A stretch of 64,000 nt of DNA from an uncultured Candidatus Binatia bacterium (GTDB lineage Bacteria > Desulfobacterota > Binatia > HRBIN30 > CADEER01): NCBI GenBank assembly GCA_965216585.1, contig CBDCGC010000003.1, forward strand, positions 2,337,219-2,401,218. Reading direction: 5' to 3'. The position numbers and the translations under genes are program-made. Numbering within the stretch: position 1 is the first letter of the stretch; each line of letters starts with the position of its first letter. Of the stretch, positions 7,024 to 51,309 are shown one piece after another. The notes under the pieces are model-generated. The model had not been told where the DNA came from. It saw only the letters and a program-made list of their open reading frames with translations, and did not search any database.

Positions 7024-7194
7024 GGATTGATGATGCCTCCAACCAAAATATGCTGTCCCCAGCGACGAGCCAAGTCAAGCGCGGATCTGCTCCACCGTCA
7101 TGGTCAACACGATATCAAGGGTTTGGACGCTCCTCCGGGCCCCGCGAGGGCACGGCCGTTTGGACGATCGCAGATCGCAGATTATTCTTCCCGG

Positions 7195-8283
7195 ATGCCG
7201 GGAATCTACGATCAGGTGCTCGCGTACATCGACCAGCCGGATGCGAGCGATTTCGACGACCTGGCACTGGCCGTCTTCGCTCACCAATACGCCGCCAATC
7301 GCCCCTACCGAGCGTTCTGTGAGAGCCGCGGCGCCGCGCCGAGCTCGCTGTCGAGTTGGCGCCAGATCCCAGCCGTGCCGATCCAGGCCTTCAAAGAGGT
7401 CGACCTCTGCTGCGGCGAAGCCGAACGCGTGTTCCTCTCGACCGGAACGACGGCGGGCGCAGACAAGCGATCGCGGCACTGCATGCCCGATTTGCGCCTC
7501 TATCGCCGCTCGGCAGTCGCCGGCCTGCGTCGTTTCCTGTTCCCCGACGTCGAGCGGATGAAGATGGTTTCCCTGATTCCACCCGTCACGGCGTGGCCCG
7601 ATTCATCTCTCGCCCAGATGGTGGCATGGGCGGGCGAAGACTTTTCCAGCGACGGCATCACCTACGCAACCGACGGAGAGGCGCCGCGTGTCGAAATGGT
7701 CGTCGATTGTCTGCGCGACAGCGAGCGCAGCGCCGAACCGCTGGCGATCTTCGCGACGACCGCAGCGCTCATTCAATTCCTCGACTACGCGCGCCAGGAG
7801 GGGCTCACCTTCCGCTTGCCGCACGACAGCCGCTTGATGGACACCGGCGGCGGCAAGGGAGCACCGCGACCGATGTCGCGCAAAGGCATTCTTCACGCAG
7901 TGTGGAATGCCTTCGCCATTCCGGGCTACTTCGCCGTCAACGAATACGGCATGGCCGAGATGTCGAGCCAATACTACGACTCGGTGATCTGCGATCGGTA
8001 CCGCGGCATCTTCGCGGCGCGCCGCCTGTTGGCACCCGAGTGGCTGCGCACCTGCGTGCTCGATCCAGTCGACCTCGAGCCGGTCGCCGACGGCGAAGCG
8101 GGACTGCTGTGTCACTACGATCTCGCCAATGCCGGCTCGGTGATGGCAATCCTCTCCGAGGATATGGGGAGAATCACCGGCGGCGGCTTGCAACACCTGG
8201 GACGTGCCCCGCAGGCGGAGGCTCGCGGTTGCTCACTGGCGGCCGGCGAGTGGAAGAGTGCGGCGCCAGCAGCGAGCGCCTGA
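7195..8283 (+). CDS. luxE: acyl-protein synthetase, LuxE family
   Basis: Clear similarity to LuxE: IPAVPIQAFKEV..FLSTGTTAG (compare IPVFPTSVFKF..FTSSGTNG) and MDTGGGKG (compare ITGGGWK). The ORF track starts at 6829 but overlaps the divergent gene, so ATG 7195 is chosen; start uncertain (ATG 7030/7033 also possible). Confidence 0.75.
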   Translation: MPGIYDQVLAYIDQPDASDFDDLALAVFAHQYAANRPYRAFCESRGAAPSSLSSWRQIPAVPIQAFKEVDLCCGEAERVFLSTGTTAGADKRSRHCMPDLRLYRRSAVAGLRRFLFPDVERMKMVSLIPPVTAWPDSSLAQMVAWAGEDFSSDGITYATDGEAPRVEMVVDCLRDSERSAEPLAIFATTAALIQFLDYARQEGLTFRLPHDSRLMDTGGGKGAPRPMSRKGILHAVWNAFAIPGYFAVNEYGMAEMSSQYYDSVICDRYRGIFAARRLLAPEWLRTCVLDPVDLEPVADGEAGLLCHYDLANAGSVMAILSEDMGRITGGGLQHLGRAPQAEARGCSLAAGEWKSAAPAASA

Positions 8284-8305
8284 TCAAACAGCCGTCAGCG
8301 CCATC

Positions 8306-9499
8306 ATGTCGGCGCTGCGCGCGGCGAATGCGCAGGCGGCAGCGTTGTCGCCACGCCAGCGGGCGGCAATCGTCGGCGAGTTGGCTGAGGCGTGGTTGCA
8401 GCCGGCATCACCGTGGTTGGCGCGCGCGGTAGACGCACTCACCGCCGCCGGGCCGTTCTCTCGGCCCATGCTCGAGCACGCTCTGCCGAGGATGATCGAA
8501 CCGCTGCGCGGCGATGCCATCGAACGCCTGGTGCGACGGGAGCTGGGCGACTGGCCCGAGCCAGCCGCAGCCAGTCTGGTAGTGCACATCCTGCCGAGCA
8601 ACCTGGCCGGGCACGCCGCGATTCCAGGCGCCCTGTCGCTCGTCGTCGGCGGCGCCTGCCTGCTCAAGTCCGGCCGTCGCGATCAGGACTTTGGCCGCCT
8701 GTGGGTCGAGTCGCTGCGCGCCACCAACGCCACGCTCGGAGCCTGCATCGAAAACCTGTACTGGCGCGGCGGCGATCGGCAGATTGAAGATTCAGTGTTC
8801 GGCGGTGCGGATGTGGTGATCGCGGCGGGCAGCGATCGCGCCATCGCCGACATCGGGGATCGCTGTCGAGGTCGATTCGCCGGCTACGGGCACCGCCTCA
8901 GCTTTGCCGTCGTCAGCGCCGGCGCCGACGTGCGCGCGGCGGCGAGCTGCTTGGCCGACGACATCGCGATCTGGGACCAACTGGGATGCTTGTCGCCACA
9001 GTCGTGCTTCGTCCAGGGCCCTCGCCAGCGCAGTGTCGAGCTGGCGGAACACCTCGCCGGCGAGCTGGCCGAGCGCGCACGGCGCTGGCCACCAGCCAGG
9101 CTGGAGGTCGGTGAGTTGCTGGCGATACGCCGCTTCCGCGACGCCGCGGCCTGGCGCGGCTTCGCGACAGGTGAGCCGTGTCTGTTTGCCGCCTCTGACG
9201 ATCTGGCCGCCGGCAACGTCGTCATCGACGAGGCCGGCAACTTCGCAGCGACGCCGCTCCACCGCTGCCTGCGCCTACTACCGTTTGCATCGCCAGACGA
9301 GGTGCGCGATGTCGTCGCAACGCAGCGCGGGCTTCTCGAAGGGGCGGCCGTCGCCGCACCGCCAGAGCAATGGGAGTCGTGGTGTGCGATCTTGCACGAG
9401 GCCGGTGTCCCGCAGGTGGTCGGCGCCGGAGAGCTCCAACGACCGACACTCGAGTGGCGGCAGAGCGGACGCGATCGGCTCGCCGGAGTCTATCTCTGA
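8306..9499 (+). CDS. luxC: acyl-CoA reductase, LuxC family (fatty aldehyde-forming)
   Basis: Similarity to LuxC: HILPSNLAGHAAIPGALSLVVGGACLLKSG, GADVVIAAGSDRAI, IWDQLGCLSPQSCFV (compare FYDQQACFSTQNIYY). Starts 23 nt after luxE. Confidence 0.75.
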   Translation: MSALRAANAQAAALSPRQRAAIVGELAEAWLQPASPWLARAVDALTAAGPFSRPMLEHALPRMIEPLRGDAIERLVRRELGDWPEPAAASLVVHILPSNLAGHAAIPGALSLVVGGACLLKSGRRDQDFGRLWVESLRATNATLGACIENLYWRGGDRQIEDSVFGGADVVIAAGSDRAIADIGDRCRGRFAGYGHRLSFAVVSAGADVRAAASCLADDIAIWDQLGCLSPQSCFVQGPRQRSVELAEHLAGELAERARRWPPARLEVGELLAIRRFRDAAAWRGFATGEPCLFAASDDLAAGNVVIDEAGNFAATPLHRCLRLLPFASPDEVRDVVATQRGLLEGAAVAAPPEQWESWCAILHEAGVPQVVGAGELQRPTLEWRQSGRDRLAGVYL

Positions 9500-9552
9500 C
9501 GACGGAAAGAAAAAGAGCGACGACCTTGAACAGCCACGGAATCGAGGAAGCA

Positions 9553-10773
9553 ATGAGCGCACGCAACGATCTGGTGAAACTCTTTCGCAGCCACGTCTGC
9601 CAGACGTCTGCCGAGCCGCTATCGATCGTCGTCGAACGCGCCAGTGGCGCCAAGATCTGGGATGTCGACGGACGCGAGTACCTCGACCTCTTGTCCGGCA
9701 TCGGAGTCACCGGCATCGGCCACTGCAACACCGAAGTCGTTGCTGCGATCGCAGAGCAAGCGCCGCGCTATCTACACGCGATGGTCTACGGCGAAGCGGT
9801 CGAGCGGCCGCAGGTCGAGCTGGCGCGCAAGTTGGCGGAGTTGGCGCCCGGCGACCTCTCGACCTCCTACTTCACCAACAGCGGCACCGAAGCGGTCGAA
9901 GGTGCACTCAAGCTCGCCCGCAAGCGCACGGGTCGAACGCGCTTCATCGCCTTCGAAGGCGGCTACCACGGCGATACGACTGGATCGCTGTCGCTGTGCG
10001 ACAATCGCGTGTACCGCTCGCCGTTCGAGCCACTCGGTCTGGACGTCGACTTTCTTCCCTTCGGCGACGTTGCCACCCTCGGCCGTATCGATGAATCGAT
10101 CGCCGCCGTCATCGTCGAGCCGATCCAGGGCGAGGGCGGCGTCCGTATTCCCACCGACGAGTTTCACCCCGCCCTGCGACATGCCTGCGACGAAGGCGGC
10201 TGCTTGTTGATCTACGACGAAGTGATGACCGGGCTCGGTCGCACCGGCCGATGGTTTGCCTGCCAGCACTGGGATGTCTGTCCGGACATCATGGTGCTGG
10301 CCAAAGCGCTGGGTGGCGGTCTACCGCTCGGGGCGTTCCTCGGATCCCCCGAGCTCATGGCCGAGCTCTCGCACGATCCACCGCTGTGCCACGTGACGAC
10401 CTTTGGCGGGCACCCACTGTCGTGCGCCGCCGGTTTGGCGGGCCTGGCGTATGCCGAAGGCGAAAATCTGCCGCAGCGCGCCGCTGAGCAAGGAAAGCAG
10501 TGGCTACTGAGGCTGTCGGCACTCATCGACGACCGCCTGCTCGACGTCCGCGGTCGCGGCATGTTGATCGCCCTCGAGTTTGCGACGCCGGAGCTGACGA
10601 GCGCGTTCTGCCGAACGGCCTTCGCCAATGGCTTGATCCTCAACTGGACCCTGCACCGCGACACCGTCGTTCGCCTGGCGCCGCCGCTCGTCATGACCGC
10701 CGAGGAAACCGAGAAGGCGTTCGAGCTGATCAGCGAATCGCTGTCGGCAGCCGGCGACGAGGCCGCCCCGTAG
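9553..10773 (+). CDS. class-III pyridoxal-phosphate aminotransferase (omega-transaminase / acetylornithine-aminotransferase family)
   Basis: Motifs FTNSGTEAVEGALKLAR, DEVMTGLGRTGRWFA and LAKALGGGLPLGAF; GAGGAAG Shine-Dalgarno before ATG 9553. Confidence 0.85.
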   Translation: MSARNDLVKLFRSHVCQTSAEPLSIVVERASGAKIWDVDGREYLDLLSGIGVTGIGHCNTEVVAAIAEQAPRYLHAMVYGEAVERPQVELARKLAELAPGDLSTSYFTNSGTEAVEGALKLARKRTGRTRFIAFEGGYHGDTTGSLSLCDNRVYRSPFEPLGLDVDFLPFGDVATLGRIDESIAAVIVEPIQGEGGVRIPTDEFHPALRHACDEGGCLLIYDEVMTGLGRTGRWFACQHWDVCPDIMVLAKALGGGLPLGAFLGSPELMAELSHDPPLCHVTTFGGHPLSCAAGLAGLAYAEGENLPQRAAEQGKQWLLRLSALIDDRLLDVRGRGMLIALEFATPELTSAFCRTAFANGLILNWTLHRDTVVRLAPPLVMTAEETEKAFELISESLSAAGDEAAP

Positions 10774-33837: not shown

Positions 33838-36213
33838 ATGTCGACAAAATCGAGAGCGTGGCGGCGTCTCATTACTGCGCTCGCCCTTCTGGGCATCGCG
33901 GCGGCTTGCGGGGACGACGACTCCGCCGGCGAAATCACTGAACCGGCGGCCTTCACGGTGAGCCCGGGGGTGCGGCTGGTGACCGTCAGCGGCGCCGAGG
34001 CCAAGCAGCCGCTGACTCTGCGCGACGCCTCGGGGCGGCGCTTGATCACGCTCATCGCCGACGACAACGGCAACGCCGCCTTCTCGCCGATTACCGAGGA
34101 GCACACGGTCTATGAAACCGGCACCGGCGAAGCGCCACCGAGCGGGCGCGGGTTCACCCTGCGCGCCGGTGATGGCTACGTCATTCGCGACGAGTCGACC
34201 GACCCGATCCAGACCTCCGAACCGTTCCGCGTCCTGGCGCGCGACGACCTTCCCGACGAATCTCTCTACGACGAACAGGTGGTGAACGGTGTGCCCTGGG
34301 AGATCACCGGCGGCGCCGCCCTCGAAGAGCACGACGTCGAAGAGGGCGTCAACTATCTCGAGATGCGCGACGGCACGCTGCTCTCCGCCATGGTCCGCCT
34401 TCCCGATCCGCGCTTCTACGGCGATCCACCTTATCCAACCGTCATCGAGCTGTCCGGCTACGATCCGTCCAACCCGAGCAGTCCCGAGCCCGGCTCGCTG
34501 ATCGCAGGCGCCTTGGGCTACGCGACGGTCGGCGTCAACCTGCGCGGCACTGGCTGCTCGGGCGGAGTGTTCGACGTCTTCTCGCCGGCCGAACAAGCCG
34601 ACGGCTACGACCTGGTCGAGATCATCGCCCGCCAGCCGTGGGTGCTCCACAACCACGTCGGCATGGTCGGTTTGAGCTACTCCGGCATCACCCAGCTCTT
34701 CACCGCATCGACACAGCCGCCCAGCTTGGCCGCCATTGCACCGCTGTCGGTCATCGAGGACTCGTGGCAGATGGCATGGCCCGGCGGAATCTACAACGCC
34801 GGTTTCACCAAACAGTGGGTCGCCGAGCGCGAGCGCCAGTCGTCCGGCCAGCAGGGTTGGACGCGACGCCGCATCGAAGCTGGCGATACGGTCTGCGAAG
34901 CCAACCAGGCGTTGCGCGATCAGAGCGTCGGCTTCGAGGCCTTCGTGCGCTCACTGCAAACGCGCCCCGACGATGCAGACGAACGCGACCTCGCCAGGCT
35001 GGCTCCGTCGATCAACCGGCCGGTCTTTCTCACCGGCGCCTGGCAGGACGAGCAGACCGGTCCGCGTTTTGCCACCATGCTCGATAACTTCACCGGTGCC
35101 GGCAACAAGAGCTTCGTCCTCTTCAACGGCCACCACCCCGATGGCTACAGCGCCCACAACCTGAGCCGCTGGTACGAGTTCCTCGACCTCTACGTCGCTC
35201 GACGCGTGCCGCGTTTGCTCGATCTGGTGCGCGCGGTATTGCCGGACGAGCTCGAGAACAACTTCGGCGCGCCGCTCGCTCTCGACCCCGACCGCTTTGC
35301 CGACCTCGACGACTCGCAATACGACGAGGCACTCGCCCGCTGGGAATCGGATCCCACCATCACGATCGACTTCGAGGTCGGCATGGGCGACGTCGACAAC
35401 GCCCTCGGCGCGCCGGTGCCGCGCTTTACGGCGCAATTCGATCACTTCCCACCGGCCGACGCGGAAGCGTGGCGCCTCTACCTGGACGCCGGCGGACGCC
35501 TCGTAGATGCCGCACCGGCGGAAGAGGGCGCCGACCGCTTCACCTTCGATGCCGACATCGGCTTGGTCGGCTACGCCAACGAAGGCGGTTTCGACTTCAT
35601 CATGCCGAGTTTCGATCTCGACTTCGACTGGCAACCGACGCCGGACGGAAAGGGCCTTTCCTACCTGACCGAGCCAATCGACGAAGACGTCGTCATCGCC
35701 GGCTCCGGCCACGCCGATTTGTGGTTGCGCAGTGAAAGCAGCGAAGCCGCGATCGAGCTGGTTCTCTCAGAAGTCACACCCGACGGCGACGAAGTTCGTA
35801 TCCAGAACGGAGTCCTGCGCGCCGGATTTCCGGTCGACGAAGAACGCTCGGACGATTTCACGATTCAAATTCTATACCACCCGGACTCCTACCAACCGCT
35901 ACCGGTCGGCGAGCTCGTCCTCGTGCGCGTACCGATCTTCCCGGTTGCCCACCCGCTGCGCGCCGGCTCGCAACTGCGCCTTCAGATCAACACCCCGGGC
36001 GGCGACCTGCCGTTGTGGTTCTTCGAAAACCGCGACCCCGGCGGCGAGGACATCGGCTACAACATCGGCCGCGGCGGCTCCGCCGCGTCGTCGATCGTCC
36101 TGCCCGTGCTGCCGGCCGGCGCGATCGATATCCCCGCCGAAAGGCCGATCTGCGGCGCCTTGCGCGGCCAGCCATGCCGAGCCTACGTCCCGCTGGAGAA
36201 CGAGCCCTCCTGA
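33838..36213 (+). CDS. secreted CocE/NonD-family (S15 X-Pro dipeptidyl-peptidase-like) alpha/beta hydrolase, probable lipoprotein
   Basis: AAGGGGG Shine-Dalgarno; signal peptide ending ...LLGIAAAC; GLSYSG nucleophile motif; about 790 aa. Confidence 0.65.
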   Translation: MSTKSRAWRRLITALALLGIAAACGDDDSAGEITEPAAFTVSPGVRLVTVSGAEAKQPLTLRDASGRRLITLIADDNGNAAFSPITEEHTVYETGTGEAPPSGRGFTLRAGDGYVIRDESTDPIQTSEPFRVLARDDLPDESLYDEQVVNGVPWEITGGAALEEHDVEEGVNYLEMRDGTLLSAMVRLPDPRFYGDPPYPTVIELSGYDPSNPSSPEPGSLIAGALGYATVGVNLRGTGCSGGVFDVFSPAEQADGYDLVEIIARQPWVLHNHVGMVGLSYSGITQLFTASTQPPSLAAIAPLSVIEDSWQMAWPGGIYNAGFTKQWVAERERQSSGQQGWTRRRIEAGDTVCEANQALRDQSVGFEAFVRSLQTRPDDADERDLARLAPSINRPVFLTGAWQDEQTGPRFATMLDNFTGAGNKSFVLFNGHHPDGYSAHNLSRWYEFLDLYVARRVPRLLDLVRAVLPDELENNFGAPLALDPDRFADLDDSQYDEALARWESDPTITIDFEVGMGDVDNALGAPVPRFTAQFDHFPPADAEAWRLYLDAGGRLVDAAPAEEGADRFTFDADIGLVGYANEGGFDFIMPSFDLDFDWQPTPDGKGLSYLTEPIDEDVVIAGSGHADLWLRSESSEAAIELVLSEVTPDGDEVRIQNGVLRAGFPVDEERSDDFTIQILYHPDSYQPLPVGELVLVRVPIFPVAHPLRAGSQLRLQINTPGGDLPLWFFENRDPGGEDIGYNIGRGGSAASSIVLPVLPAGAIDIPAERPICGALRGQPCRAYVPLENEPS

Positions 36214-36360
36214 CCCCAATCGAATCGCGAAGCTCTACTCACCGCCACGGAAAGATCCATTGTCGCTGCTGCCGCGGCTCTTCCTTGACTCGGATCGCAC
36301 GGAACGACTAAGACTGAACCTTGCGATTGAGGACATTCCAGAAGGTAGAATGGAGAATCC

Positions 36361-37503
36361 ATGAAGTCTGTTCGCGCACTGACCTTTGCCCCGCTGTTTC
36401 TGCTTCTGCCGATCGCCTTCGCTCCGACGTTGGCAACGGCGGCTCGCCACACGGTTCACCCCGGCGAATCGATTCAGGCGGCGATCGACGCCGCGGCCCC
36501 CGGCGATACGGTCAAGGTGATGCCCGGTGACTACATCGAGCCCGGCCCGGGTCCCGCCGCAGTGAGAATCACCAAGCGGCTCAAATTGATCGCCAAGAGC
36601 AAGTTGCCGGATGTGAAGGTTCGCATCCTGCCCGGCGCGGGGCAGACCGACGGCATCGTCGTCGAGCCCGAAAACCCGGGCGACCCGGACGTCGAAAAGG
36701 TCCTCATCAAGGGTTTCACCGTCGAGGGTTTCCCCAACAACGGCATCTGGCTGCGCCACGTCAACAAGTTCAAGATCAAGAACAACGAGTCGATCGACAA
36801 TCTCGAGAACGGAATCTGGCCAACGCTTTCCGCCAACGGCCTGGTGAAGAACAACGTTTCGTACGGTTCGCTGGACGCCGCCTTGTGGATCGAGGCCGCA
36901 GAGAACGTACGCGTCATCAAGAACGATCTCCATCACAGTCCGACCGGCCTCGAAATCACGGTGTCGCGGAACATCATCGCCAAGAAGAACGACATCCACC
37001 ACAACACCGTTGGCGTCGGCCTCTACCATCCCAACGGGGCGGGACTGCCGCCGCTCGGCAACGACGGTGACTGGTACATCATCAACAACCACATCCACGA
37101 CAACAACGAGATGAATACCGCGCCACCGGGGTCGTTGTCGGCAGAGCTACCGCCTGGGGGTGGAATCCTGTTGATCGGCGTCGACCGGGTTACGGTCAAG
37201 AACAACCTGATCGAAAACAACAACTTCTTCGGACTCGCGGTGGTGGACTGGTGTTTGGGCTTCGACTGCGATGTCAGCCCGCCGATCGTCGCCGATCAGT
37301 TTCCAGACGAGAACAGGGTCATCAAGAACAACCTCATCGACAACGGACTCAGCCCCATTCCGTTTGGTGGCTTGGAAATCTTCGCCAACGACATCATCTA
37401 CCTCTTGCTAGAACCCGGCCACGAAAACTGCTTCGCGAAAAACACCGGTACGTTCGGGGGGCTTGGAACACCCATACACGCCAACTCCTGCCCGCGATTC
37501 TGA
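36361..37503 (+). CDS. secreted right-handed parallel beta-helix repeat protein (pectate-lyase fold)
   Basis: Signal peptide; repeated NNxIxxN / IKNN turns (IKNNESIDN, VKNNVSYG, IKNDLHHS, KKNDIHHN, INNHIHDN, VKNNLIENN, IKNNLIDN). Asn/Lys-rich and visibly lower GC than its neighbours. Confidence 0.6.
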   Translation: MKSVRALTFAPLFLLLPIAFAPTLATAARHTVHPGESIQAAIDAAAPGDTVKVMPGDYIEPGPGPAAVRITKRLKLIAKSKLPDVKVRILPGAGQTDGIVVEPENPGDPDVEKVLIKGFTVEGFPNNGIWLRHVNKFKIKNNESIDNLENGIWPTLSANGLVKNNVSYGSLDAALWIEAAENVRVIKNDLHHSPTGLEITVSRNIIAKKNDIHHNTVGVGLYHPNGAGLPPLGNDGDWYIINNHIHDNNEMNTAPPGSLSAELPPGGGILLIGVDRVTVKNNLIENNNFFGLAVVDWCLGFDCDVSPPIVADQFPDENRVIKNNLIDNGLSPIPFGGLEIFANDIIYLLLEPGHENCFAKNTGTFGGLGTPIHANSCPRF

Positions 37504-37611
37504 CACCGGAATCGTTTCCACGGCCTGATCGGCGCGGGTTGGTGAAGGTGCGTCCCCCTTTGTCCAACCCAGCTGCCCGAATGGCGTAGGGTGCCACGTG
37601 TTTGTCGTTCC

Positions 37612-39966
37612 ATGACCGCCCGCGCCGCCTTTTGGGTCGTTCTCGCGATCGGTTTCCTCGCTGCCGGCCCCGGAGACCTCGCCTTCGCGCGCGAGACGAA
37701 GGGCACCGACCCTGTCAAACCCTCCGAAGGGCTCCTGAAAATCACCTACCCTCAGGAGGGAACGCTGTTCCCCCCTGAAATCGTCGCCCCCACTTTCCTG
37801 TGGGAAGAGGGCACCGCCAACGTCGAAGTCTGGAATGTCGTCGTTCGCGACGACAGTGGTGGCGAGTTGCTCAAAGCCACGGTTGATGCACCGCAGTGGC
37901 GCCCCTCCGAGGAAACGTGGAACCAGATCAAGCTGCAGAGCTCGGAGCGCGACGCTGCAGTGACCGTCGAAGGAGTAGACCGCGACGACGGCGCGGCGGT
38001 CCTGTCGTCGGCAAGTGTCCACATTCGCACTTCGAAAGACCCGGTTGGCGACTCTCTGTTCTATCGCGAGGTGCCGCTGCCTTTTTTGACGGCTGTACAG
38101 GACCCGTCACTCATTCGCTGGCGCTACGGAACCATCGACTCGCAGTCGGGCCCGCCGATCGTACTGCAGAACTTGCCGGTGTGTGGCAACTGCCACTCCT
38201 TTGCCGACAACGGCAGCGTACTCGGTCTCGACGTCGACTACGGCAACGACAAGGGCGCCTACGCGATCATGACCGTTTCTTCTCACATGGTGATGGACGA
38301 CGAGAAGATCATCACCTGGGCGGACTACAAGCGTCAGGACGGAGAGATCACCTTTGGCTTACTGTCGCGTGTTTCGCCCAGCGGCCGGTACGTGATCAGC
38401 ACCGTCAAAGACCGCTCGGTGTTCGTCGCCATCCCGGACATCATGATCTCGCAGCTCTTCTTTCCGATCAAAGGCATTCTCGTCGTCTACGATCGGGAGA
38501 ACGAGACCTACAAGGCGTTGCCCGGTGCTGACGACCCGCGCTACGTGCAGAGCAACGCGGTCTGGAGTCCGGATGGCAAAGAGATCGTCTTCGCCCGGGC
38601 AAAGGCCTACCACGCGCAAAGTCTCGATCAGCAAAACAGCGCCATCGTCGACGAGAAAGACGTCCCAGAGTTCATCGTCGACAAGAAGCCCTTTCGCTAC
38701 GACCTGTACCGAATTCCGTTCAACGACGGCCAAGGCGGGACGGCAGTACCGCTCGAAGGCGCCTCGAGCAACGGGATGAGCAACTTCTTTCCGAAATACT
38801 CACCCGACGGCAAGTGGATCATCTTCTGCAAAGCAGAGAACTACATGTTGCTTCAGCCCGACGCCGAGCTCTACATCATCCCCGCCAAAGGTGGCAGGGC
38901 GCGCCGCCTGCGCTACAACACCGCGCGCATGAATTCCTGGCACAGTTGGTCTTCCAACAGCCGGTGGCTGGTCTTCTCTTCCAAGGTCAACACGGCCTAC
39001 ACGCAGCTCTTTCTCACTCACATCGACGCCGACGGAAACGATAGCCCGCCCGTCCTCCTCGAGCGCTTCACCTCTCCCGACCGCGCGGCGAACATTCCTG
39101 AGTTCGTCAATTTGCCGGGCGACGCCATCGCCGCCATCCGCGAGAATTTCCTCGACGCCTACTCGTTCTTACGGGCCGGTATGGCCAACGAACGCACCGG
39201 CGACCACAAGGGCGCCGAACGCGCCTTCCGGCGGGGGCTGGGGCTCTCCCCACAAGACGCCGAACTGCGCAACGCATTGGGTTGGACGTTGTTTCAGAGC
39301 GGCAGGACCGACGAGGCGTTGGCAGAATACCGGCGAGCCCTGGCGGTGGATCCGCAACACGTCAAGTCGCACAACAACATGGCTCTTGCCCTGGTCGAGC
39401 TCGGTAGGTTGGAGGATGCGGCCGCACACTTCGAAAAGTCCCTCCAAATCGAACCGAAGGCCGAAATCTACAGCGATCTCGGTTTCATCAAGGCCCGTCT
39501 GGGCAAGTCAGACGAGGCCCTCGCCGACTATCGCAAAGCGCTGGAGCTGGATCCAAAGTGTGCATCGGCACACGTGAACCTCGCCGTCGCGTTCATCCAA
39601 GCAGGCGCGCTCTCCAAAGCCGAGTCCCACTACCGCCAGGCTCTGGAAGAAAAGCCCGCCGCCGCTACCCACAACGGCCTGGGTTTCGCGCTGGCGCGAC
39701 AGGGCCGCGTGGACGAGGCGCTCGCCGAGTACGGCAAGGCGGTCGAAGTCGACCCAAACTTCACCCCAGCCTACAACAACCTCGCGGCTTCGTTGGCAAA
39801 GCAAGGCAAGCTCGAAGATGCGGAGCGCTACTACCGACGTTCGCTAGAGCTCAAGCCGAGCGCCTCCGTACACAACGCATTGGGAATTCTGTTGGGCCGA
39901 CTCGGCAGATCCGAGGAGGCCGCAGATCACTTCCGCCAGTCGAAAGCTTTGGAATCGGCAAGGTGA
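37612..39966 (+). CDS. secreted protein with CxxCH haem-binding motif, TolB-like PD40 beta-propeller repeats and C-terminal TPR repeat array
   Basis: Signal peptide MTARAAFWVVLAIGFLAAG; CGNCH; WSPDGKEIVF and YSPDGKWIIF PD40 motifs; about 10 TPR units in the last 330 aa. Confidence 0.65.
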   Translation: MTARAAFWVVLAIGFLAAGPGDLAFARETKGTDPVKPSEGLLKITYPQEGTLFPPEIVAPTFLWEEGTANVEVWNVVVRDDSGGELLKATVDAPQWRPSEETWNQIKLQSSERDAAVTVEGVDRDDGAAVLSSASVHIRTSKDPVGDSLFYREVPLPFLTAVQDPSLIRWRYGTIDSQSGPPIVLQNLPVCGNCHSFADNGSVLGLDVDYGNDKGAYAIMTVSSHMVMDDEKIITWADYKRQDGEITFGLLSRVSPSGRYVISTVKDRSVFVAIPDIMISQLFFPIKGILVVYDRENETYKALPGADDPRYVQSNAVWSPDGKEIVFARAKAYHAQSLDQQNSAIVDEKDVPEFIVDKKPFRYDLYRIPFNDGQGGTAVPLEGASSNGMSNFFPKYSPDGKWIIFCKAENYMLLQPDAELYIIPAKGGRARRLRYNTARMNSWHSWSSNSRWLVFSSKVNTAYTQLFLTHIDADGNDSPPVLLERFTSPDRAANIPEFVNLPGDAIAAIRENFLDAYSFLRAGMANERTGDHKGAERAFRRGLGLSPQDAELRNALGWTLFQSGRTDEALAEYRRALAVDPQHVKSHNNMALALVELGRLEDAAAHFEKSLQIEPKAEIYSDLGFIKARLGKSDEALADYRKALELDPKCASAHVNLAVAFIQAGALSKAESHYRQALEEKPAAATHNGLGFALARQGRVDEALAEYGKAVEVDPNFTPAYNNLAASLAKQGKLEDAERYYRRSLELKPSASVHNALGILLGRLGRSEEAADHFRQSKALESAR

Positions 39967-40164
39967 GCCGGAACTATCACCTGCCGCACGGCAACCCAGA
40001 CCATGTCGCGCTCCGGCCCGATCATATTCCTTGACAATCGATAAGTCTTCTTGGGATTGTACACGTTGGCGTCGTAGGCGTTGTCGACAGACAGGAGCGT
40101 TGAACGACATATCGGTCGAGCAAACCCTCTGAACAGCGAACAGCCGTATGAACGTGGGAGCAAG

Positions 40165-41391
40165 ATGATTCGATTTCGACTGAGGCAGGAAGCCATGACA
40201 ACCATTGCAACGCGGATCGGCGCTGCCGTCACCCTCGCAGCGACCGTCATGATACAGACTTCGCACGCCTACCCGACCTACAACGACGGTATGGGTAACG
40301 GCTGCGTGCAGTGTCACAACGGCTTCAACGGAGGCACCGGTGCTTTGCACACCAATCACCGGGATCAGTTGGGGGTTCAGACCTGCAACCTGTGTCACCC
40401 CAACGGCGGCGGCACGACTCCGGTGTCGACATACACCAGCGGTACGGGTGGCGCCCTCGGCTGCGCCGGGTGTCACGGTCAGGATTACGGCGAGACGTCA
40501 CCCAACAGCGGCCAGCCAAAGGCGACCGCCTACGGCTTGCGCCAACACCACGTCAACAACGGCATCAGCTCGTGCGGAACCGGAGGCTGCCACGCGCCAG
40601 GGTCCCTCGGACACCCCAATCCCTTCCCGCCGCTATTTGGTGAGGATGAGGTGCCGCCCTACTACGATCCTATTTTCAGCGGTCTGACCGATCCGTGCTC
40701 GAGCTCGGACGAAGACATGCCTTTCGATATGGACTCTCTCGGCCTCGACAACGACGGCGACGGCGACATCGACGGAGCCGATCTGGATTGCGCCGTGTCG
40801 GGAACACCGACGGCGACACCCAGCCCGACATCGACTCCCGCGCCGACCACGGCATTGAGTTGTGGGAGTGGGCCTGTAGCCGGTTGCATCGCCCCTGCAA
40901 AAGGGGTGCTGGTCGTCAAAGAAAAAGCCGCCGGCAAGGAGAAGATCAAAGTCGCGCTCAAGAAGCTGCAGCCTGCACTCGTCCCGAATGACTTCGGCGA
41001 CCCGGTTACCGGAGCGACGGCGTACAAGATCTGTATCTACGATTCCACCGACCAGCCGGTGGGAGAGTACACCGTCGACCAAGCCGGAGCCTTGTGCAAC
41101 GGCGTGTCCTGTTGGTCGTCGATCACCAAGGGCTACAAGTACCGCGACAAGGGCACCTCGACGGACGGAATCTTGAAGATCAATCTGTTCGGCGGCGACG
41201 CCGGCAAGGGCAAGGTGATCGTCGTCGGCAAGAACAAGACCGGAAATTTGCCGACCGGGGTAGCGTCGGCAATGCAAGGCGAAACCAGCGCAACGGTTCA
41301 GGTCTTGTCGAGCGATGCCTCTTGCGTCGGCATGAATCTGCCGCAAGTCAAGAAGGCCGACGGCCTGATCTTCAAAGCTACCGGGCCCTGA
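40165..41391 (+). CDS. secreted multihaem c-type cytochrome (cytochrome-c3-like motif set) with Asp-rich dockerin-like segment, PT linker and novel C-terminal domain
   Basis: CVQCH, CNLCH, CAGCH plus CGTGGCH (CX4CH as in class III cytochromes); DNDGDGDIDGADLD; TPTATPSPTSTPAPTT linker. Start 40165 or 40195. Confidence 0.65.
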   Translation: MIRFRLRQEAMTTIATRIGAAVTLAATVMIQTSHAYPTYNDGMGNGCVQCHNGFNGGTGALHTNHRDQLGVQTCNLCHPNGGGTTPVSTYTSGTGGALGCAGCHGQDYGETSPNSGQPKATAYGLRQHHVNNGISSCGTGGCHAPGSLGHPNPFPPLFGEDEVPPYYDPIFSGLTDPCSSSDEDMPFDMDSLGLDNDGDGDIDGADLDCAVSGTPTATPSPTSTPAPTTALSCGSGPVAGCIAPAKGVLVVKEKAAGKEKIKVALKKLQPALVPNDFGDPVTGATAYKICIYDSTDQPVGEYTVDQAGALCNGVSCWSSITKGYKYRDKGTSTDGILKINLFGGDAGKGKVIVVGKNKTGNLPTGVASAMQGETSATVQVLSSDASCVGMNLPQVKKADGLIFKATGP

Positions 41392-42251: not shown

Positions 42252-43007
42252 CTACGGATCGCGATCCGCCCAGGCCTCTTCGTAGAACGCGAGAAGATCT
42301 TCGCCGAGGTTCTTGATCAACCAGCGGTGAACGAGCCCGGCGCGCGCTTCCCAACCGTCGTCGACGTGCAGCGCATGGGCACCGGCCACAGCTTCAAAAT
42401 CGCCGTGCAACGCCGCGGCGAGAGCCTGAACCTCGCCGGCCGGAGCGACTTCGTCCTCCTCGCCGGCAACCACCAGGGTGCCAAGAAACTTGGCGGTCCC
42501 ACCGGTGGGCACCGAGTCGATGAGCCGGGGGGAGGCTACCAGCTCGTCGATCAGCCCGTCCGGCTCGCGGACATCACCGTCCGGGTACGAACCCGCGAGA
42601 CCCTTGCCCGGTTGCCGGTCGGCGCGGCGCAACCTCTGCAACCATGTGCCCGAATCGCGCAGCGCCGCGGCACTGACCAAGGGCGCAAGAGCGACGACGG
42701 CGCGCACGCTGTCCCGCAGGTTCAAGGCGAGCGATGCGCCGAGATCTTGCCCGATCAGCACCGGCACCGCATCGAGATCGGCAATCGCTTCACGCAACGA
42801 ATCGTGCCTCGAGCGCAGCGACCTGCCTTGCTGCCTGTCCCAACCGAGCGAAATACAGCGCCAGCCGCGGTGAGAAAGGAAGCTCGTCATGCGTCGCCAC
42901 GAGTGGCGCGCGTCCCACAGACCGTGAGCGAAGACCAGCGGCGCGGTGAACTTCGCACTCTCCGCCTCGCTGTATTCCGCATGCAGTGGGCCGAGAGTTT
43001 GCGCCAT
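42252..43007 (-). CDS. alpha/beta-hydrolase fold protein (Asp-nucleophile type, epoxide-hydrolase/dehalogenase-like)
   Basis: LVFAHGLWDARHSW (HG oxyanion region) and IGQDLGASLAL elbow with Asp in the nucleophile position. Start at ATG 43007 (alternative 43085). Confidence 0.55.
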   Translation of the reverse strand: MAQTLGPLHAEYSEAESAKFTAPLVFAHGLWDARHSWRRMTSFLSHRGWRCISLGWDRQQGRSLRSRHDSLREAIADLDAVPVLIGQDLGASLALNLRDSVRAVVALAPLVSAAALRDSGTWLQRLRRADRQPGKGLAGSYPDGDVREPDGLIDELVASPRLIDSVPTGGTAKFLGTLVVAGEEDEVAPAGEVQALAAALHGDFEAVAGAHALHVDDGWEARAGLVHRWLIKNLGEDLLAFYEEAWADRDP

Positions 43008-43183
43008 CCACCCATTTCTAGAGAAAGCGCAGGCGAGCGCAAGGCAAGTCGATACGACGGAACCACGCCTTCGATGTACCCACAATGCGAAAAGGCTCTC
43101 CGCTTGGAGAGCCTTTCCGTGAGCCTGGTGTCTGCTTGAGAGAGAGAGAAATCTGGCCGAGTGTATGGCCCTACGTGTGCTGC

Positions 43184-43369
43184 CTACTTCTTCTTCTTGG
43201 CTGCCGAACGGGTCTTCTTCCGTGCCGGAGCTTTCTTCTTGGCACGCGACGTGCGCTTCTTCGTGGTCTTCTTGCGCGTCGCCTTCTTGCGAGTGGTCTT
43301 CTTTCTCGCCGTGCGCTTCTTCGTGGTCTTCTTACGCGTCGTCTTTCTCTTTTTCCTTGCTACTGGCAT
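43184..43369 (-). CDS. small histone-H1-like Lys/Arg-rich DNA-binding protein (repeats of RKKTTKKRTA)
   Basis: Perfect AAGGAGG Shine-Dalgarno 7 nt upstream of ATG 43369; 61 aa, more than 55% K/R: MPVARKKRKTTRKKTTKKRTARKKTTRKKATRKKTTKKRTSRAKKKAPARKKTRSAAKKKK. Confidence 0.6.
   Translation of the reverse strand: MPVARKKRKTTRKKTTKKRTARKKTTRKKATRKKTTKKRTSRAKKKAPARKKTRSAAKKKK
43215..43360. repeat. tandem 60-nt (30-nt sub-periodic) duplication inside the histone-like gene
   Basis: gtgcgcttcttcgtggtcttcttgcgcgtcg... (43251-43310) is repeated from 43311 with a single mismatch over more than 30 nt. Confidence 0.6.
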
Positions 43370-43751
43370 AACAGCCTCCTTGATGAAGCGTTCTGTGATT
43401 TCGTGACCTCTCTCATCACAGACACTCTCCTCAACAGCCACACCTCACCAGAACTTGCCGGATTATAGGGTCCACTTTGGGGTTGGTCAAGCCAGAATGC
43501 CATTTTGGAAATGATTTTTTAAAACCAATTTCTTCCATTCTTTAGCGGAAGTCTGTGCACACAGTCGTTGCAGTGCATGCGCGCAGCTTCTCCATTCACG
43601 GATCACTCGAAGACCCCAGTGAAACGCATCGGACTTATTCCACCGCCAATACATACCACAAAAATCTTGACCGTTGGTCGCTGCGGTGCCACGCACCGCC
43701 CAAGCACAACGCCGCTACGTCGTGTGCCGCAAGGGGTTGCCGCGTCGGCGC

Positions 43752-46145: not shown

Positions 46146-46652
46146 ATGCGTCCCCGCAAACCTCACCCCGCTTCGCTCGACGAAGTCGTGATCCGCCGCG
46201 CCGGCCACGAGGCCGTGATCGACTTTCGCGAGCCCGGATTCGCGACGACCCACCTCCAGCTCGGAGCAGACGCCGACGCGATGTCAGACGGTGAGATTCT
46301 TCACTGCTTCAACGAGACGTTACGGACGCAGCTCGCAGCCGTCGAGGCGTACGAAAACGTCGCCGTCGAGATCCCGCCCGGGCAACCTCAGATCCGCTTT
46401 TTCGAAGCGGGAGAACAGTGGACGCCTCGCGGTTCGGTGCTGCGCTGCCTGGTCGACGACGGCGGGCCGCAGGGAGAGGCGATCATCCACGTCGACGATG
46501 TCGAGCTTTCTCTAGCGGAGTTTGGCCGCCTCCTGTGCACCTACGCCGGCTGGGGAATGCGCATATGCTTCGTTCCCGAGGAGCGCTTGGAGGAATCGCC
46601 TGAAATCGAAATCGGCACACCGGAGGACGAGCCCGGTGCAATCGACACGTGA
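46146..46652 (+). CDS. hypothetical protein
   Basis: ORF with a plausible Shine-Dalgarno; no recognisable family. Immediately upstream of the molybdoenzyme gene. Confidence 0.35.
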   Translation: MRPRKPHPASLDEVVIRRAGHEAVIDFREPGFATTHLQLGADADAMSDGEILHCFNETLRTQLAAVEAYENVAVEIPPGQPQIRFFEAGEQWTPRGSVLRCLVDDGGPQGEAIIHVDDVELSLAEFGRLLCTYAGWGMRICFVPEERLEESPEIEIGTPEDEPGAIDT

Positions 46653-46746
46653 GGCGACGAGCGGATCCTATCCGGCGATCCGAAGCGGCTCTTCTCTCCT
46701 GTTGGCCTCTGGGCTACGACTTGCTCGGGTGATCGAGGAGACGAAG

Positions 46747-48918
46747 ATGGAGAGCGCGAGCACCAAGACGGTCTACCGAACCTGCCCGCTGTGCGAAGCC
46801 TGTTGCGGCCTGGCCATCGAGGTCGAGAACGACCGAGTCGTACAGGTACGACCCGACGCCGAGGACGTGTTCTCAAGGGGTTTCATCTGCCCCAAGGGCG
46901 TCGCTGTCGCCGAGATCCACAACGACCCCGACCGGATCCGCTCGCCGCTGCGGCGCACCGCCGGCGGCGACTTCGAGGAAATCTCGTGGTCGAGCGCGCT
47001 CGATCTCGCTGCCGAGAAGTTGGCAGCGACACGCGACCGCCACGGTGCCAACGCGGTCGGCATCTACTACGGCAACCCGATCATCCACAACCACGGCGCC
47101 CTGATGCTGCGCAAGGCGCTGCTCGCCGCCGTCGGCACCCGCAATGTCTTCAGTGCCGGCTCGCAGGACACCGCACCGCGCTTCGCAACCTCCTACTACC
47201 TCTTCGGCAGCTCGCTGGTCACGCCGGTTCCCGACGTCGATCGCTGCGACTACTTCCTCTGCATCGGAGCCAACCCCGTCGTTTCCAACGGCAGCGCCAT
47301 GACGGCGCCCAACATGCGCGCGCGCCTGCGCGCGATCCGCGAACGCGGCGGCAAGATCGTCGTCGCCGACCCGCGCCGCACGGAAACCGCTCAGGTGGCG
47401 GACGAGCACATTGCCATCCGACCGGGTGGCGACGCCGCATTTCTGCTGGCGCTGGTGCGAGTTCTCATCGACGGTGGCCACGTCGACAATTCCTTCGTCG
47501 CAGACCACACGGTCGGTTGGCACGATGTCGCCGAGAAGCTGGCCAAGCTCGACCTCCGCCAGGCAGCGGAATGCTGCGCCATCGACCTCGTGACGATCGA
47601 GCGCGTCGCTCACGAGCTCGTGGATGCAACGGCTGGCGTCGCCTACTCGCGCGTCGGCACCTGCAACAACCGCTACGGCACGCTCGCCACGTGGGCGACG
47701 GATCTGCTGAACATCGCCGCCGGTCGGCTCGGTCGCGAGGGCGGATGGATGTTTTCGACACCTGCCTTCGACAGTACGTTGGTGACGCGCCTACCAGGCG
47801 GCGACGGCCATGCGCGCTGGCACAGCCGCGTGCGCGGCCTACCGGAAACGCTGGGCGACCTACCGGCAGCCTGTCTGGCCGAGGAGATCGAGGCGCCGGG
47901 CGACGGCCAGATCCGCGCGCTGATGACCTTTGCCGGCAATCCGGTCCTCTCCACACCCAACGGCCGCCGCCTCGCCAGCGCTCTCGGCGAACTCGACTTC
48001 ATGGTGTCGATCGATCTCTACGTCAACGAGACGACGCGGCACGCCGACCTGATTCTGCCTTCGGCCTGGGCGCTGGCAGAAGATCACGTCGACATGTTGG
48101 TGTCGGGATTCGCCGTGCGCAACTTCGCGCGCTGGTCGCCACCGGTGGTGCGGGCGTCTGAGAACGAGCGAGCCGATTGGGAAATCCTGCTCGCCATCAT
48201 CCGCCGCTTGGGTGGCGGGCCGACCGGCGACCGCATCCCCGACACCCTCCTTTCGGCATGCGAGAAGCTCGGTTACCGCTGGCATCCAACCAAGATGGCG
48301 AACCTGCTGCTCCGCGTCGGCCCACACGGCGACCGCTTCCTGCCGTGGCGAGATGGCTTGAACATGAAAAAGCTGCAGGCGGCGCCACACGGTATCGATC
48401 TCGGTGCCCTGCAACCGGGTTTGCAGCGCGTCCAGCACGGCGATGGCCGGGTCCATCTCGCCGCCGAACCGATCCTGCGCGCCTTCGATGCGTTGCTCGA
48501 CGACCTGCGCACCAAGCCTGCACCGGATCAGGTTCTCTTGATCGGCCGGCGCGAGGTGCGCACGTGCAACTCGTGGATCCACAACGCGCCATCGATGGTC
48601 AATGGCCGTGAACGATGCGTTCTCTACGTCCATCCGGACGATGCAGCGAGCGCCAACCTCAGCGACGGTGGCATCGCCCGCATCGAGAGTCGAGTCCACA
48701 GCGGCGATGTCCGGGTGCACGTTACCAAAGACGTCCGCCCCGGTGTCGTCAGCCTACCGCACGGCTGGGGCCATGCCGACGCCGCTCGCTGGCAAGAAGT
48801 CGCGGGTGCCCGCCCGGGAGTATCCGCCAACGACTGGACGGACGACCAGGACGTCGAGCTCGTCGTCGGGCAATCGATCCTCAACGGCGTCCCCGTGCGC
48901 CTGAGCGCCGCCGCTTGA
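46747..48918 (+). CDS. molybdopterin-dependent oxidoreductase, MopB superfamily (NasA/NarB- or formate-dehydrogenase-like catalytic subunit with N-terminal 4Fe-4S)
   Basis: GAGGAG Shine-Dalgarno; CPLCEACCGL...FICPKG Fe-S motif; 723 aa; molybdopterin-binding and C-terminal MopB-barrel-like segments. Confidence 0.8.
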   Translation: MESASTKTVYRTCPLCEACCGLAIEVENDRVVQVRPDAEDVFSRGFICPKGVAVAEIHNDPDRIRSPLRRTAGGDFEEISWSSALDLAAEKLAATRDRHGANAVGIYYGNPIIHNHGALMLRKALLAAVGTRNVFSAGSQDTAPRFATSYYLFGSSLVTPVPDVDRCDYFLCIGANPVVSNGSAMTAPNMRARLRAIRERGGKIVVADPRRTETAQVADEHIAIRPGGDAAFLLALVRVLIDGGHVDNSFVADHTVGWHDVAEKLAKLDLRQAAECCAIDLVTIERVAHELVDATAGVAYSRVGTCNNRYGTLATWATDLLNIAAGRLGREGGWMFSTPAFDSTLVTRLPGGDGHARWHSRVRGLPETLGDLPAACLAEEIEAPGDGQIRALMTFAGNPVLSTPNGRRLASALGELDFMVSIDLYVNETTRHADLILPSAWALAEDHVDMLVSGFAVRNFARWSPPVVRASENERADWEILLAIIRRLGGGPTGDRIPDTLLSACEKLGYRWHPTKMANLLLRVGPHGDRFLPWRDGLNMKKLQAAPHGIDLGALQPGLQRVQHGDGRVHLAAEPILRAFDALLDDLRTKPAPDQVLLIGRREVRTCNSWIHNAPSMVNGRERCVLYVHPDDAASANLSDGGIARIESRVHSGDVRVHVTKDVRPGVVSLPHGWGHADAARWQEVAGARPGVSANDWTDDQDVELVVGQSILNGVPVRLSAAA

Positions 48919-50118: not shown

Positions 50119-51309
50119 TCAGGCACAGCGAACCGGCATCTCTTCAATGCCGACGATGAAGTTCGACGGCCGCATCGGCAACGCCTCGCTGGTGGCCAGC
50201 TCGAGGTTGTTTAGCTCTCGGCAGATCTCGTCAAACATCGCCGTCAGCTCGAGGCGAGCCAGGCTGGCGCCAAGACAGAAGTGGGCGCCATACCCGCCAA
50301 AGGCAACGTGCGGATTCGGGTGGCGTTCGATATCGAAGGTAAACGGATCGTCGAACACGCTCTCGTCGCGATTGCCCGAGGGGTAGAGCAACATCAGCTT
50401 GTCGCCTTCTCTGATCTGCTCACCGTGCAGCTCGACGTCGCGTGTCGCGGTGCGCGACATGTTCTGAATAGGAGTGACCCAACGCAGCATCTCCTCGATC
50501 GCCAGCGGAATCTTCTGCCGATCGTCAACCAGCGCCGCATACTGCCCGCGGTGCATCAAGAGCTGGTACATCCCACCGGAGAGCACGTGTCGAGTCGTCT
50601 CGTCACCGCCAATCAGGATGAGCAAAGACTCCTGCAAGAGCGCCTCGTCGTCGAGCTTCTCACCGTCGATCTCGGCGTGCACCAGGATGCTCATGAGATC
50701 GTCGGCCGGTCCATTGGCTCGTCGGTCGGCGACGACCTCGCGATTGTAGGCGCTGTATTCCTCGAACGCCTGCATCGCCGCCGCGGCCGCTTCGGGTGTT
50801 GCCGTGGCCGACGTCCCGATGATCAAGTCGTCCGACCAGCGCAGCAAACGGTCGCGGTCCTCCGGTGCCACTCCGAGAAGATCGCCAATCACGATCATCG
50901 GCAGCGGTGCCGCGACATCGCGGACGAAATCAAAACTGCCCTTTGCTTTCGCTTCGCTCACCAGAGTGCGGCAGATGCCGCGGATTTTCGGTCCGTGATC
51001 TGTGACCCGGCGCGGCGTAAAACCGCTGCTGACCAACCGGCGCCGCTGCACGTGCTCGGGATCGTCCATGTTGATCATCGAGGGAATTGCCGGCTGGTCG
51101 GGGCGCATTCCCTGGCTGTTGCAAAAAACCGCAGGGGTCTTCGAGACGTGCATGATGTCGGCGTGCGTCGAGACGCCCCAGACCCGGCATCCTTCGTCCC
51201 AAAAGACCGGGGCATTGGCGCGCATCCAGCGAAACGACGGGTGTGGATCGGCGGCGTAGAAATGGCCGTCCAGCAAGTTGATGGCGGGGTTTGGTAGGTG
51301 GTTCGGCAT
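50119..51309 (-). CDS. cytochrome P450
   Basis: Haem loop FGGYGAHFCLGASLA; GGDETT I-helix; EEMLRW EXXR motif. Confidence 0.9.
   Translation of the reverse strand: MPNHLPNPAINLLDGHFYAADPHPSFRWMRANAPVFWDEGCRVWGVSTHADIMHVSKTPAVFCNSQGMRPDQPAIPSMINMDDPEHVQRRRLVSSGFTPRRVTDHGPKIRGICRTLVSEAKAKGSFDFVRDVAAPLPMIVIGDLLGVAPEDRDRLLRWSDDLIIGTSATATPEAAAAAMQAFEEYSAYNREVVADRRANGPADDLMSILVHAEIDGEKLDDEALLQESLLILIGGDETTRHVLSGGMYQLLMHRGQYAALVDDRQKIPLAIEEMLRWVTPIQNMSRTATRDVELHGEQIREGDKLMLLYPSGNRDESVFDDPFTFDIERHPNPHVAFGGYGAHFCLGASLARLELTAMFDEICRELNNLELATSEALPMRPSNFIVGIEEMPVRCA

Follow-up and report, generated by a model that had tools for sequence, protein, structure and literature searches.

Four consecutive genes on the + strand of an uncultured Candidatus Binatia bacterium, at positions 33838 to 41391 of a 64,000-nucleotide window (the whole stretch of DNA that was analysed, positions 2,337,219 to 2,401,218 of contig CBDCGC010000003.1 in GenBank assembly GCA_965216585.1), raise the question of whether they encode a single exported assembly or are in part neighbours by chance. 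A sequence-only reading of this DNA had proposed a single assembly of redox-active, scaffold and hydrolase proteins. Judged from the gene sequences and their relatives, we find instead that the interval is two unrelated things: an ordinary CocE/NonD lipoprotein hydrolase (g1), and a conserved cluster of a beta-helix protein (g2), a propeller/TPR protein (g3) and a tetrahaem-type cytochrome that ends in a distinctive C-terminal domain, or CTD (g4). Synteny and a natural gene fusion support the view that g2, g3 and g4 are exported proteins of redox character that work together, and we lean, if not heavily, towards their forming an exported, envelope-located redox module conserved in Candidatus Binatia that would shuttle electrons in the steps proposed below. 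The Binatia are abundant uncultured bacteria of soils and sediments, and we know of essentially nothing about the biology of their envelope.

Conservation and fusion of g2, g3 and g4

Related loci were collected by tblastn of the window proteins against the loci reached via g4, together with three reached via g3 homologues and one via a C-terminal fragment of a g4 orthologue, which makes 17 distinct related loci, L001 and L011 being one contig. The scan of the genome collection with g4 itself had returned 14 loci, mostly named as Candidatus Binatia or bearing older or unclassified labels ('Deltaproteobacteria bacterium', 'uncultured delta proteobacterium'). Every one of the 17 has orthologues of g2 and g3 adjacent to each other, the g2 copies being 49–66% identical, and g4 follows g3 in 16 of the 17, with all three genes present in L001 (=L011), L002, L004–L010, L012–L016, L018, L019 and L022. 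The best conserved protein of the block is g3, whose N-terminal 520 residues are 71–84% identical across loci. Since the block is intact even in L013–L015, where the identity of g4 is down to 42–47%, and since the genes flanking it vary between loci, its persistence is more than residual synteny. Within the window the intergenic gaps are 87 bp between g2 and g3 and 198 bp between g3 and g4.

A second line of evidence comes from fusion proteins. An exhaustive search of representative sequences with g4 found P0157, a metagenomic protein of 606 residues. Behind its signal peptide it joins a tetrahaem domain (47% identity with g4 residues 22–185), the acidic loop known from g4, a Ser/Thr-rich (ST) linker and a C-terminal beta-helix of the g2 type that is 55% identical to mature g2 over its whole length. 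This 'Rosetta-stone' arrangement is the strongest evidence that the haem domain of g4 and the beta-helix of g2 act together. In a sub-lineage of metagenomic g4 relatives (P0011, P0012 and P0053) the protein is extended after the CTD by about 270 residues containing two class-I cytochrome c motifs, CKQCH and CAxCH (dihaem type; Pfam Cytochrom_C, 6.7e-13), which supports an electron-transfer role, and in P0126 the CTD is replaced by a different region rich in Cys, Lys and Ala. Neither the window nor loci L001–L017 hold a homologue of the dihaem extension.

Three loci or genes depart from the simple picture of the block. At L020 (8329–14328) g2 and g3 are present with a further gene, gX, between them, g4 was not found within 6 kb, and g3 is followed by an opposite-strand gene of the AhpC/TSA type with a thioredoxin fold. 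At L022 (7525–8759, GCA_046327945.1) the gene calls split the g4 orthologue into two overlapping genes (171 and 252 amino acids), which points to a frameshift or an assembly error; the 252-residue product mimicked a 'CTD-only' protein. The gene gX encodes a tandem RidA/YjgF-like protein of about 390 residues that weakly resembles FkbO/Hyg5 chorismatases and lacks a signal peptide, and it lies beside g2 in all 17 related loci (e.g. L001:6076–7263), between g2 and g3 in 16 of them and upstream of g2 once. The 64-kb window holds no homologue of it, and the gap between g2 and g3 there (37504–37590) is only 87 bp long.

The first gene of the interval behaves differently. It was correctly recognized in the sequence-only reading as a CocE/NonD hydrolase, with matches to Pfam Peptidase_S15 (1.8e-33) and PepX_C (2.5e-18) and 146 bits against a cut-off of 66 for NCBIfam CocE_NonD (TIGR00976); its N-terminus is of lipoprotein type (LLGIAAAC), and a nucleophile-elbow Ser motif, GLSYSG, stands at residue 278. 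In tblastn searches no homologue of g1 was found within 10 kb of g4 in any related locus tested, so g1 is a chance neighbour of g2–g4, and a four-gene unit that includes the CocE/NonD gene was rejected on this ground. The proposal of a single assembly is thus supported for g2, g3 and g4, which synteny and the P0157 fusion tie together, and falls for g1.

The putative haem sites, the acidic loop and the beta-helix

The features of the interval are the following, with signal peptides judged by eye from the sequences of g1–g4:

33838–36213, + strand: g1, CocE/NonD (S15) family hydrolase, predicted lipoprotein, 791 amino acids (Pfam and NCBIfam profile matches)
36361–37503, + strand: g2, predicted exported right-handed beta-helix protein, NosD-like, 380 amino acids (Pfam matches, synteny and fusion P0157)
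37591–39966, + strand: g3, predicted exported propeller/TPR protein, 791 amino acids (784 from the ATG at 37612)
37729–38040, + strand: immunoglobulin-like (Ig-like) N-terminal domain of g3
38041–38364, + strand: conserved region of g3 bearing the single CGNCH
38182–38196, + strand: CGNCH of g3, putative single haem c site at residue 198, invariant in homologues
38365–39120, + strand: TolB-like PD40 propeller of g3 (three PD40 stretches)
39151–39963, + strand: TPR array of g3, about 8 TPRs
40165–41391, + strand: g4, tetrahaem-type cytochrome with CTD, 408 amino acids
40165–40269, + strand: signal peptide of g4, residues 1–35, predicted cleavage SHA/YP (read from the sequence)
40270–40689, + strand: tetrahaem-type domain of g4, motifs invariant or 99% conserved in 107 homologues
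40303–40317, + strand: haem motif CVQCH of g4
40384–40398, + strand: haem motif CNLCH of g4
40462–40476, + strand: haem motif CAGCH of g4
40573–40593, + strand: haem motif CGTGGCH of g4
40690–40800, + strand: acidic Cys-flanked loop of g4, DPCSS...LDNDGDGDIDGADLDC, isoelectric point (pI) 4.05, probably Ca2+-binding
40801–40851, + strand: Pro/Thr-rich (PT) linker of g4 (direct reading; AlphaFold confidence below 50)
40852–41391, + strand: CTD of g4, a basic beta-sandwich of 179 amino acids with six conserved Cys, followed by the stop codon

Signal-peptide-like N-termini can be read on all four + strand genes, as had been claimed. For g4 we place the start at the ATG at 40165, which has GGGAG upstream, rather than at the alternatives 40081 or 40195, because the N-terminus is conserved in homologues. 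Its four haem motifs, previously said to fall within about 110 residues, begin at residues 47, 74, 100 and 137 and span 97 residues. More than 300 close homologues are 55–68% identical to g4 over the full length, all of them unannotated and none with a Pfam domain, and conservation was scored in an alignment of 107 sequences (56–68% identity). In the first three motifs Cys and His are invariant; in the fourth C142 and H143 are invariant, C137 is 99% conserved, and the spacing is CX4CH in 85 sequences, CX5 in 13, CX2 in seven and CX3 and CX1 in one each. Such conservation indicates that the motifs are not there by chance. H62, H65, H129, K119, Y39 and Y123 are invariant too, which brings the invariant His to seven (51, 78, 104, 143, 62, 65 and 129; H150 is variable). 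Bis-His ligation of four haems would need eight conserved His; with seven, one of the haems may lack a sixth ligand or use another, for which K119, Y39 and Y123 are invariant alternatives. Among the 54 open reading frames (ORFs) of the window, only g3 and g4 carry convincing motifs of the CXXCH type, and one ORF of 96 amino acids has a CX4CH match.

The sequence-only reading likened g4 to cytochrome c3, and motifs and spacing bear this out. As in the c3 and c7 families (PF02085, PF14522) there are about 25 residues per haem, CX2CH and CX4CH sites are mixed, with a CGTxGCH motif like the CGTAGCH of Desulfovibrio c3, and the abundance of His would imply mostly bis-His ligation; the spacing H-x2-H-x8-CxxCH is identical to that of a segment of Desulfovibrio c3. 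Profile homology, however, does not extend this far. Against Cytochrome_C7 g4 scores 16.9 bits (cut-off 24.8) and against Cytochrom_CIII 11.6 bits (E=0.38, cut-off 22.9), although its 65%-identical relative P0012 reaches 23.8 bits with the latter; a profile of the g4 family drew only motif-level noise from all PDB sequences (E of at least 0.55), and hhalign with the c3 of Desulfovibrio vulgaris paired only LHTNHRDQLGVQTCNLCH with YHVMHDKNTKFKSCVGCH, which is not significant (E=0.027, probability 1.8%). The order of motifs and distal His differs from that in c3, with seven invariant His and not eight, and unlike c3 or c7 the haem domain continues into an acidic loop, a PT linker and the 179-residue CTD. 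We conclude that g4 has the look of a compact multihaem cytochrome whose haem density is like that of c3 and c7, that its likeness to class III is one of motifs only, and that it is a predicted small multihaem cytochrome family which current profile libraries do not recognize.

The acidic segment behind the haem domain, DNDGDGDIDGADLD, has two invariant flanking Cys (C178 and C209) and a core, LDNDG-G--D--D, that is invariant in homologues. It had been described as dockerin-like, a suggestion that we rejected: there is no Pfam match to dockerin in g4, even at E<=10, and the segment is a single D-rich loop with no duplicated F-hand. TSP_3 (PF02412) likewise has no match in g4. In being a DxDxDGxxDxxD-type loop bounded by Cys, the segment resembles the thrombospondin type-3, teneurin and acidic double-disulfide loops; it differs from these in standing alone and in falling below every family threshold (NCBIfam acid_disulf_rpt, NF033662, 18 versus 41 bits; a teneurin-4 segment in PDB, E=0.55). 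It is probably a single Ca-binding loop of the thrombospondin-type-3/teneurin kind. The PT linker that follows was rightly pointed out before, and its length and composition vary among g4 homologues.

In g3, the CGNCH site and the PD40 propeller of the earlier description were recovered, and its count of about ten TPRs was not, since the TPR region given by the profile match is 272 residues long and therefore holds about eight. The CGNCH is invariant in 46 aligned homologues, within LPVCGNCHSFAD...DYGNDKG, and the invariant stretch around it reads LPVCGNCHSFADNGSxLGLDVDYGNDKGAY. Thirty residues downstream M233 is invariant and H232 nearly so. It is plausible that this site binds haem, and H232 and M233 are possible axial ligands. 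The protein is no member of TolB by the equivalog score (TIGR02800, 30 bits against a cut-off of 343) or by a Tol-Pal gene context, and it differs from TolB/PD40 propellers and TPR lipoproteins in adding an Ig-like N-terminal domain and a region of 100 invariant residues around the CGNCH. Relatives of g3 begin with a lipobox, L(A/T)GC, whereas the N-terminus of the window copy (37612–37695) reads LAAGPGDLAFA with no Cys, so the window protein is probably soluble and exported rather than a lipoprotein.

The gene at 36361 encodes a beta-helix protein, as had been read from its sequence, with a Pfam Beta_helix match of 2.6e-20 and an N-terminus that ends in ...TLATA/A at the predicted cleavage site. 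It stays under the cut-off of TIGR03805 (80 versus 141 bits), and a single-sequence search with it detected no solved structural relative.

A widely shared C-terminal domain

The 179-residue CTD of g4 contains 20 Lys and one Arg (pI 9.1) and matches nothing in Pfam or NCBIfam, even at E<=10, nor any PDB sequence, in keeping with the Lys-rich domain of unknown type that had been noted here. AlphaFold, suggested before as a check, models it confidently as an all-beta sandwich (predicted local distance difference test, pLDDT, ~87–98), and six of its Cys are conserved (233, 241, 290, 311, 316 and 387). A distant relationship to a known beta-sandwich family is possible.

With full-length g4 as query, 2947 representative clusters (50% identity) were matched at E<=1e-3 and 1165 at E<=1e-10, and the figures for the distribution of the CTD rest on the best 150 of the 2947. 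The CTD is present in 139 of these 150, and in 127 of the 139 it ends at most six residues from the C-terminus. It typically starts with C-x3-P-x2-G-C, behind a PT or ST linker or behind Cys-rich DUF4215 repeats. The regions ahead of it, in 89 proteins, match 69 Pfam families, none of which covers the CTD itself; among these partners are phytase, astacin, reprolysin, NHL, FG-GAP, YncE-type propellers, disintegrin, ThuA and spondin. By a crude test, 65 of 91 full-length CTD proteins have a signal-peptide-like N-terminus. The CTD alone as query gave at least 30 matches and little was gained by it, and a cluster look-up of ten CTD proteins returned hardly any names or taxonomic labels. Because it stands at the extreme C-terminus of so many unrelated secreted proteins, the CTD is probably a localization module, and its distribution fits a role in localization or anchoring, though it would fit just as well if the CTD bound some ligand shared across the envelope or matrix. 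On the evidence of sequence comparison it is an undescribed, widely shared C-terminal module.

Within 404 kb of Binatia sequence (the window and the related loci), no further CTD genes were found beyond the g4 orthologues and one gene at L017. The latter, at 8108–10099 of a contig from 'bacterium Co_bin.149', an unclassified metagenome-assembled genome, is a stop-to-stop ORF of 664 codons that ends in a CTD and has no haem domain, and it was the sole CTD gene other than g4 in the genome-collection scan. Three further proteins consist of little more than the CTD (170–178 amino acids; L021:8001–8513, L023:8001–8537 and L024:5847–6383), and they lie in unrelated neighbourhoods that have no secretion or sorting gene in common.

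In its position the CTD recalls the C-terminal domains of the type IX secretion system (T9SS), which are likewise beta-sandwiches at the extreme C-terminus of unrelated proteins with signal peptides, usually behind a flexible linker. It differs in that neither its profile nor its fold agrees with the Por_Secre_tail type of about 80–100 residues. Several observations speak against a strictly terminal, cleaved sorting signal. The domain is large and disulfide-bonded, in P0011, P0012 and P0053 it is internal, with a cytochrome c domain after it, and no conserved or shared secretion or sorting gene was seen beside the CTD genes in the neighbourhoods examined. The CTD may be a new C-terminal localization domain of Binatia and related uncultured bacteria, and g4 a tetrahaem cytochrome displayed at the surface in partnership with a beta-helix enzyme of the NosD type; this extension we put forward only tentatively and think rather unlikely as a whole.

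Possible roles of the block

In the envelope redox module that we favour, the proteins would be exported by the Sec pathway and haem attached in the periplasm. The tetrahaem domain of g4 would serve as a short wire carrying electrons towards the NosD-like g2 or away from it, g2 being the partner that would handle a substrate or metal, and g3, with one probable haem, could hold the assembly together by means of its TolB-like propeller and its TPRs. Together with the PT linker, the acidic Ca-type loop may give the haem domain a flexible tether, and the basic beta-sandwich of the CTD may fix g4 in place at the outer membrane, the cell surface or the matrix, as it may for the other CTD proteins. 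Several observations weigh against such a module. The absence of g4 from L020 means that g4 is dispensable or encoded elsewhere; a cytoplasmic gX within the block is ill-suited to an envelope module, and is itself missing from the window; and a promoter and terminator scan of the interval was uninformative on operon structure. The haem chemistry also has its difficulties, in the sub-threshold scores of g4 with both cytochrome profiles, in just three invariant distal His for four haems, in the low confidence with which the CGNCH region of g3 is modelled and in a pLDDT of 40–70 over the haem domain of g4. This last value is to be expected of a domain that folds around cofactors which AlphaFold does not see, and the model is therefore no evidence either way.

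Other accounts of the same genes have to be set beside this. One is a dedicated extracellular electron-transfer system of the Mtr, Pcc or OmcS kind, with g4 at the surface reducing or oxidizing insoluble minerals or humics. A small multihaem domain on a flexible PT linker, a CTD shared with evidently secreted enzymes and the additional cytochrome domains of some relatives would all suit it, as would the PT-rich linker of the extracellular Geobacter cytochrome PgcA, an exported protein that reportedly carries c-type haem on such linkers much as g4 does; PgcA is, however, said to have monohaem domains separated by PT repeats and no CTD, where g4 has a tetrahaem domain and a CTD. We regard this account as improbable, as no gene for an outer-membrane porin, a periplasmic decahaem cytochrome or a nanowire-type cytochrome was called in nine cluster loci, no porin lies within the conserved block (beta-helix, RidA-like, propeller/TPR and tetrahaem-CTD proteins), four haems are too few to span the outer membrane, and g2 and g3 persist in L020 without g4. 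No greater probability attaches, in our view, to a NosD-like part in metal-centre maturation or metal handling, in which g2 would act in the periplasm by binding copper or some other metal, or by delivering it, and the cytochromes would furnish the electrons for a reduction, e.g. of Cu(II) to Cu(I). Like NosD (PF05048, TIGR04247), g2 is predicted to be an exported protein with a right-handed beta-helix; its 32 bits for the Pfam NosD domain exceed the threshold of 23.6, the envelope location would be compatible, and P0157 fuses a cytochrome to just such a beta-helix. But the Pfam domain is a generic beta-helix signature, and in the NosD family model (TIGR04247) g2 obtains 39.6 bits against a cut-off of 300; moreover g2 is paired with cytochromes and elsewhere fused to one, whereas NosD goes with an ABC (ATP-binding cassette) transporter, and nothing like nosZ, nosF, nosY or nosL was found among the scanned window ORFs or among the genes called in those nine cluster loci.

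It might also be asked whether the CXXCH-type motifs bind haem at all, or are structural disulfides or metal-binding sites of a Cys-rich secreted protein. Cys-rich repeats are indeed frequent in CTD proteins (DUF4215 repeats occur in 20 of 89, and disintegrin is found too), the fourth motif has a variable spacing of one to five residues, g4 itself reaches no cytochrome family threshold, and no genes for cytochrome c maturation occur among the 20 largest other window ORFs scanned. Nevertheless, in all 107 sequences a His stands immediately behind the second Cys of each of the four motifs and three more His are invariant, the sole profile matches are to cytochrome families, and relatives continue in frame into genuine class-I cytochrome c domains, so that we hold this possibility to be very slight. 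Slighter still is the credence we would give to the fuller version from which we departed, in which a single secreted assembly is encoded by all four genes and the beta-helix gene arrived by horizontal transfer. The common strand, short gaps and signal-peptide-like N-termini throughout are in its favour, as is the total GC of g2, which is indeed lower, as had been claimed, by 4 points than the window mean (0.594 versus 0.638). The absence of g1 from the related loci counts against the assembly, and codon positions count against the transfer: in 36361–37503 the GC at third positions (GC3) is 0.82, within one standard deviation of the window genes (0.793±0.040 for 54 ORFs), and the deficit sits at first and second positions (0.57 and 0.39), because the composition of the beta-helix is rich in Asn, Ile and Lys. 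With a normal GC3, and with g2 next to g3 in all relatives, there is no sign of horizontal acquisition, and the transfer was discarded as an explanation.

Elsewhere the window holds housekeeping genes (complex I subunits, CTP synthase, prolyl-tRNA synthetase, lipid A acyltransferases and enolase) and oxygenases, and none of the 20 largest other ORFs scanned belongs to a secretion system. The three P450 genes (1898–3136, 3136–4359 and 50119–51309), together with a luciferase-like monooxygenase (4304–5356) and a LuxE-like acyl-protein synthetase (6829–8283), suggest a capacity for oxidation of hydrocarbons or fatty aldehydes. A molybdopterin oxidoreductase with an Fe4S4 domain (46522–48918) lies 5 kb downstream of g4, with DUF1287, alpha/beta hydrolase and enolase genes between, and no link of it to the g2–g4 cluster was seen in the related loci. 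Nearer to the cluster, at 43184–43441 on the – strand, an ORF of 85 amino acids has an extreme content of Lys, Arg and Thr (KKRKTTRKKTTKKRTARKK...) and is histone-H1-like; it has a mirror ORF on the + strand, and either of these candidates, or neither, may be real. Around it, at 43000–43750, is the lowest-GC stretch near the cluster (0.53–0.55).

Multihaem cytochromes, beta-helix proteins and propeller/TPR lipoproteins are known kinds of protein; it is their combination, the fusion and above all the CTD that are undescribed, and neither the cluster, nor a P0157-type fusion, nor the CTD was found described in the profile libraries or the literature searched. The value of the finding is that it turns 'hypothetical proteins' into a defined system, and no paradigm is overturned by it. 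As a set tied together by synteny and a natural fusion, the beta-helix, propeller/TPR and tetrahaem proteins make a testable candidate for an envelope redox enzyme system, and the CTD would be useful at once for annotating the secretomes of Binatia and for finding the machinery or surface ligand that recognizes it. If the CTD were indeed a localization domain, it would place dozens of exported proteins (proteases, phytases, propellers and g4 among them) at the cell surface, as a sorting signal, a surface anchor or a matrix-binding module, and would point to a previously unrecognized extracellular redox capability of the Binatia.

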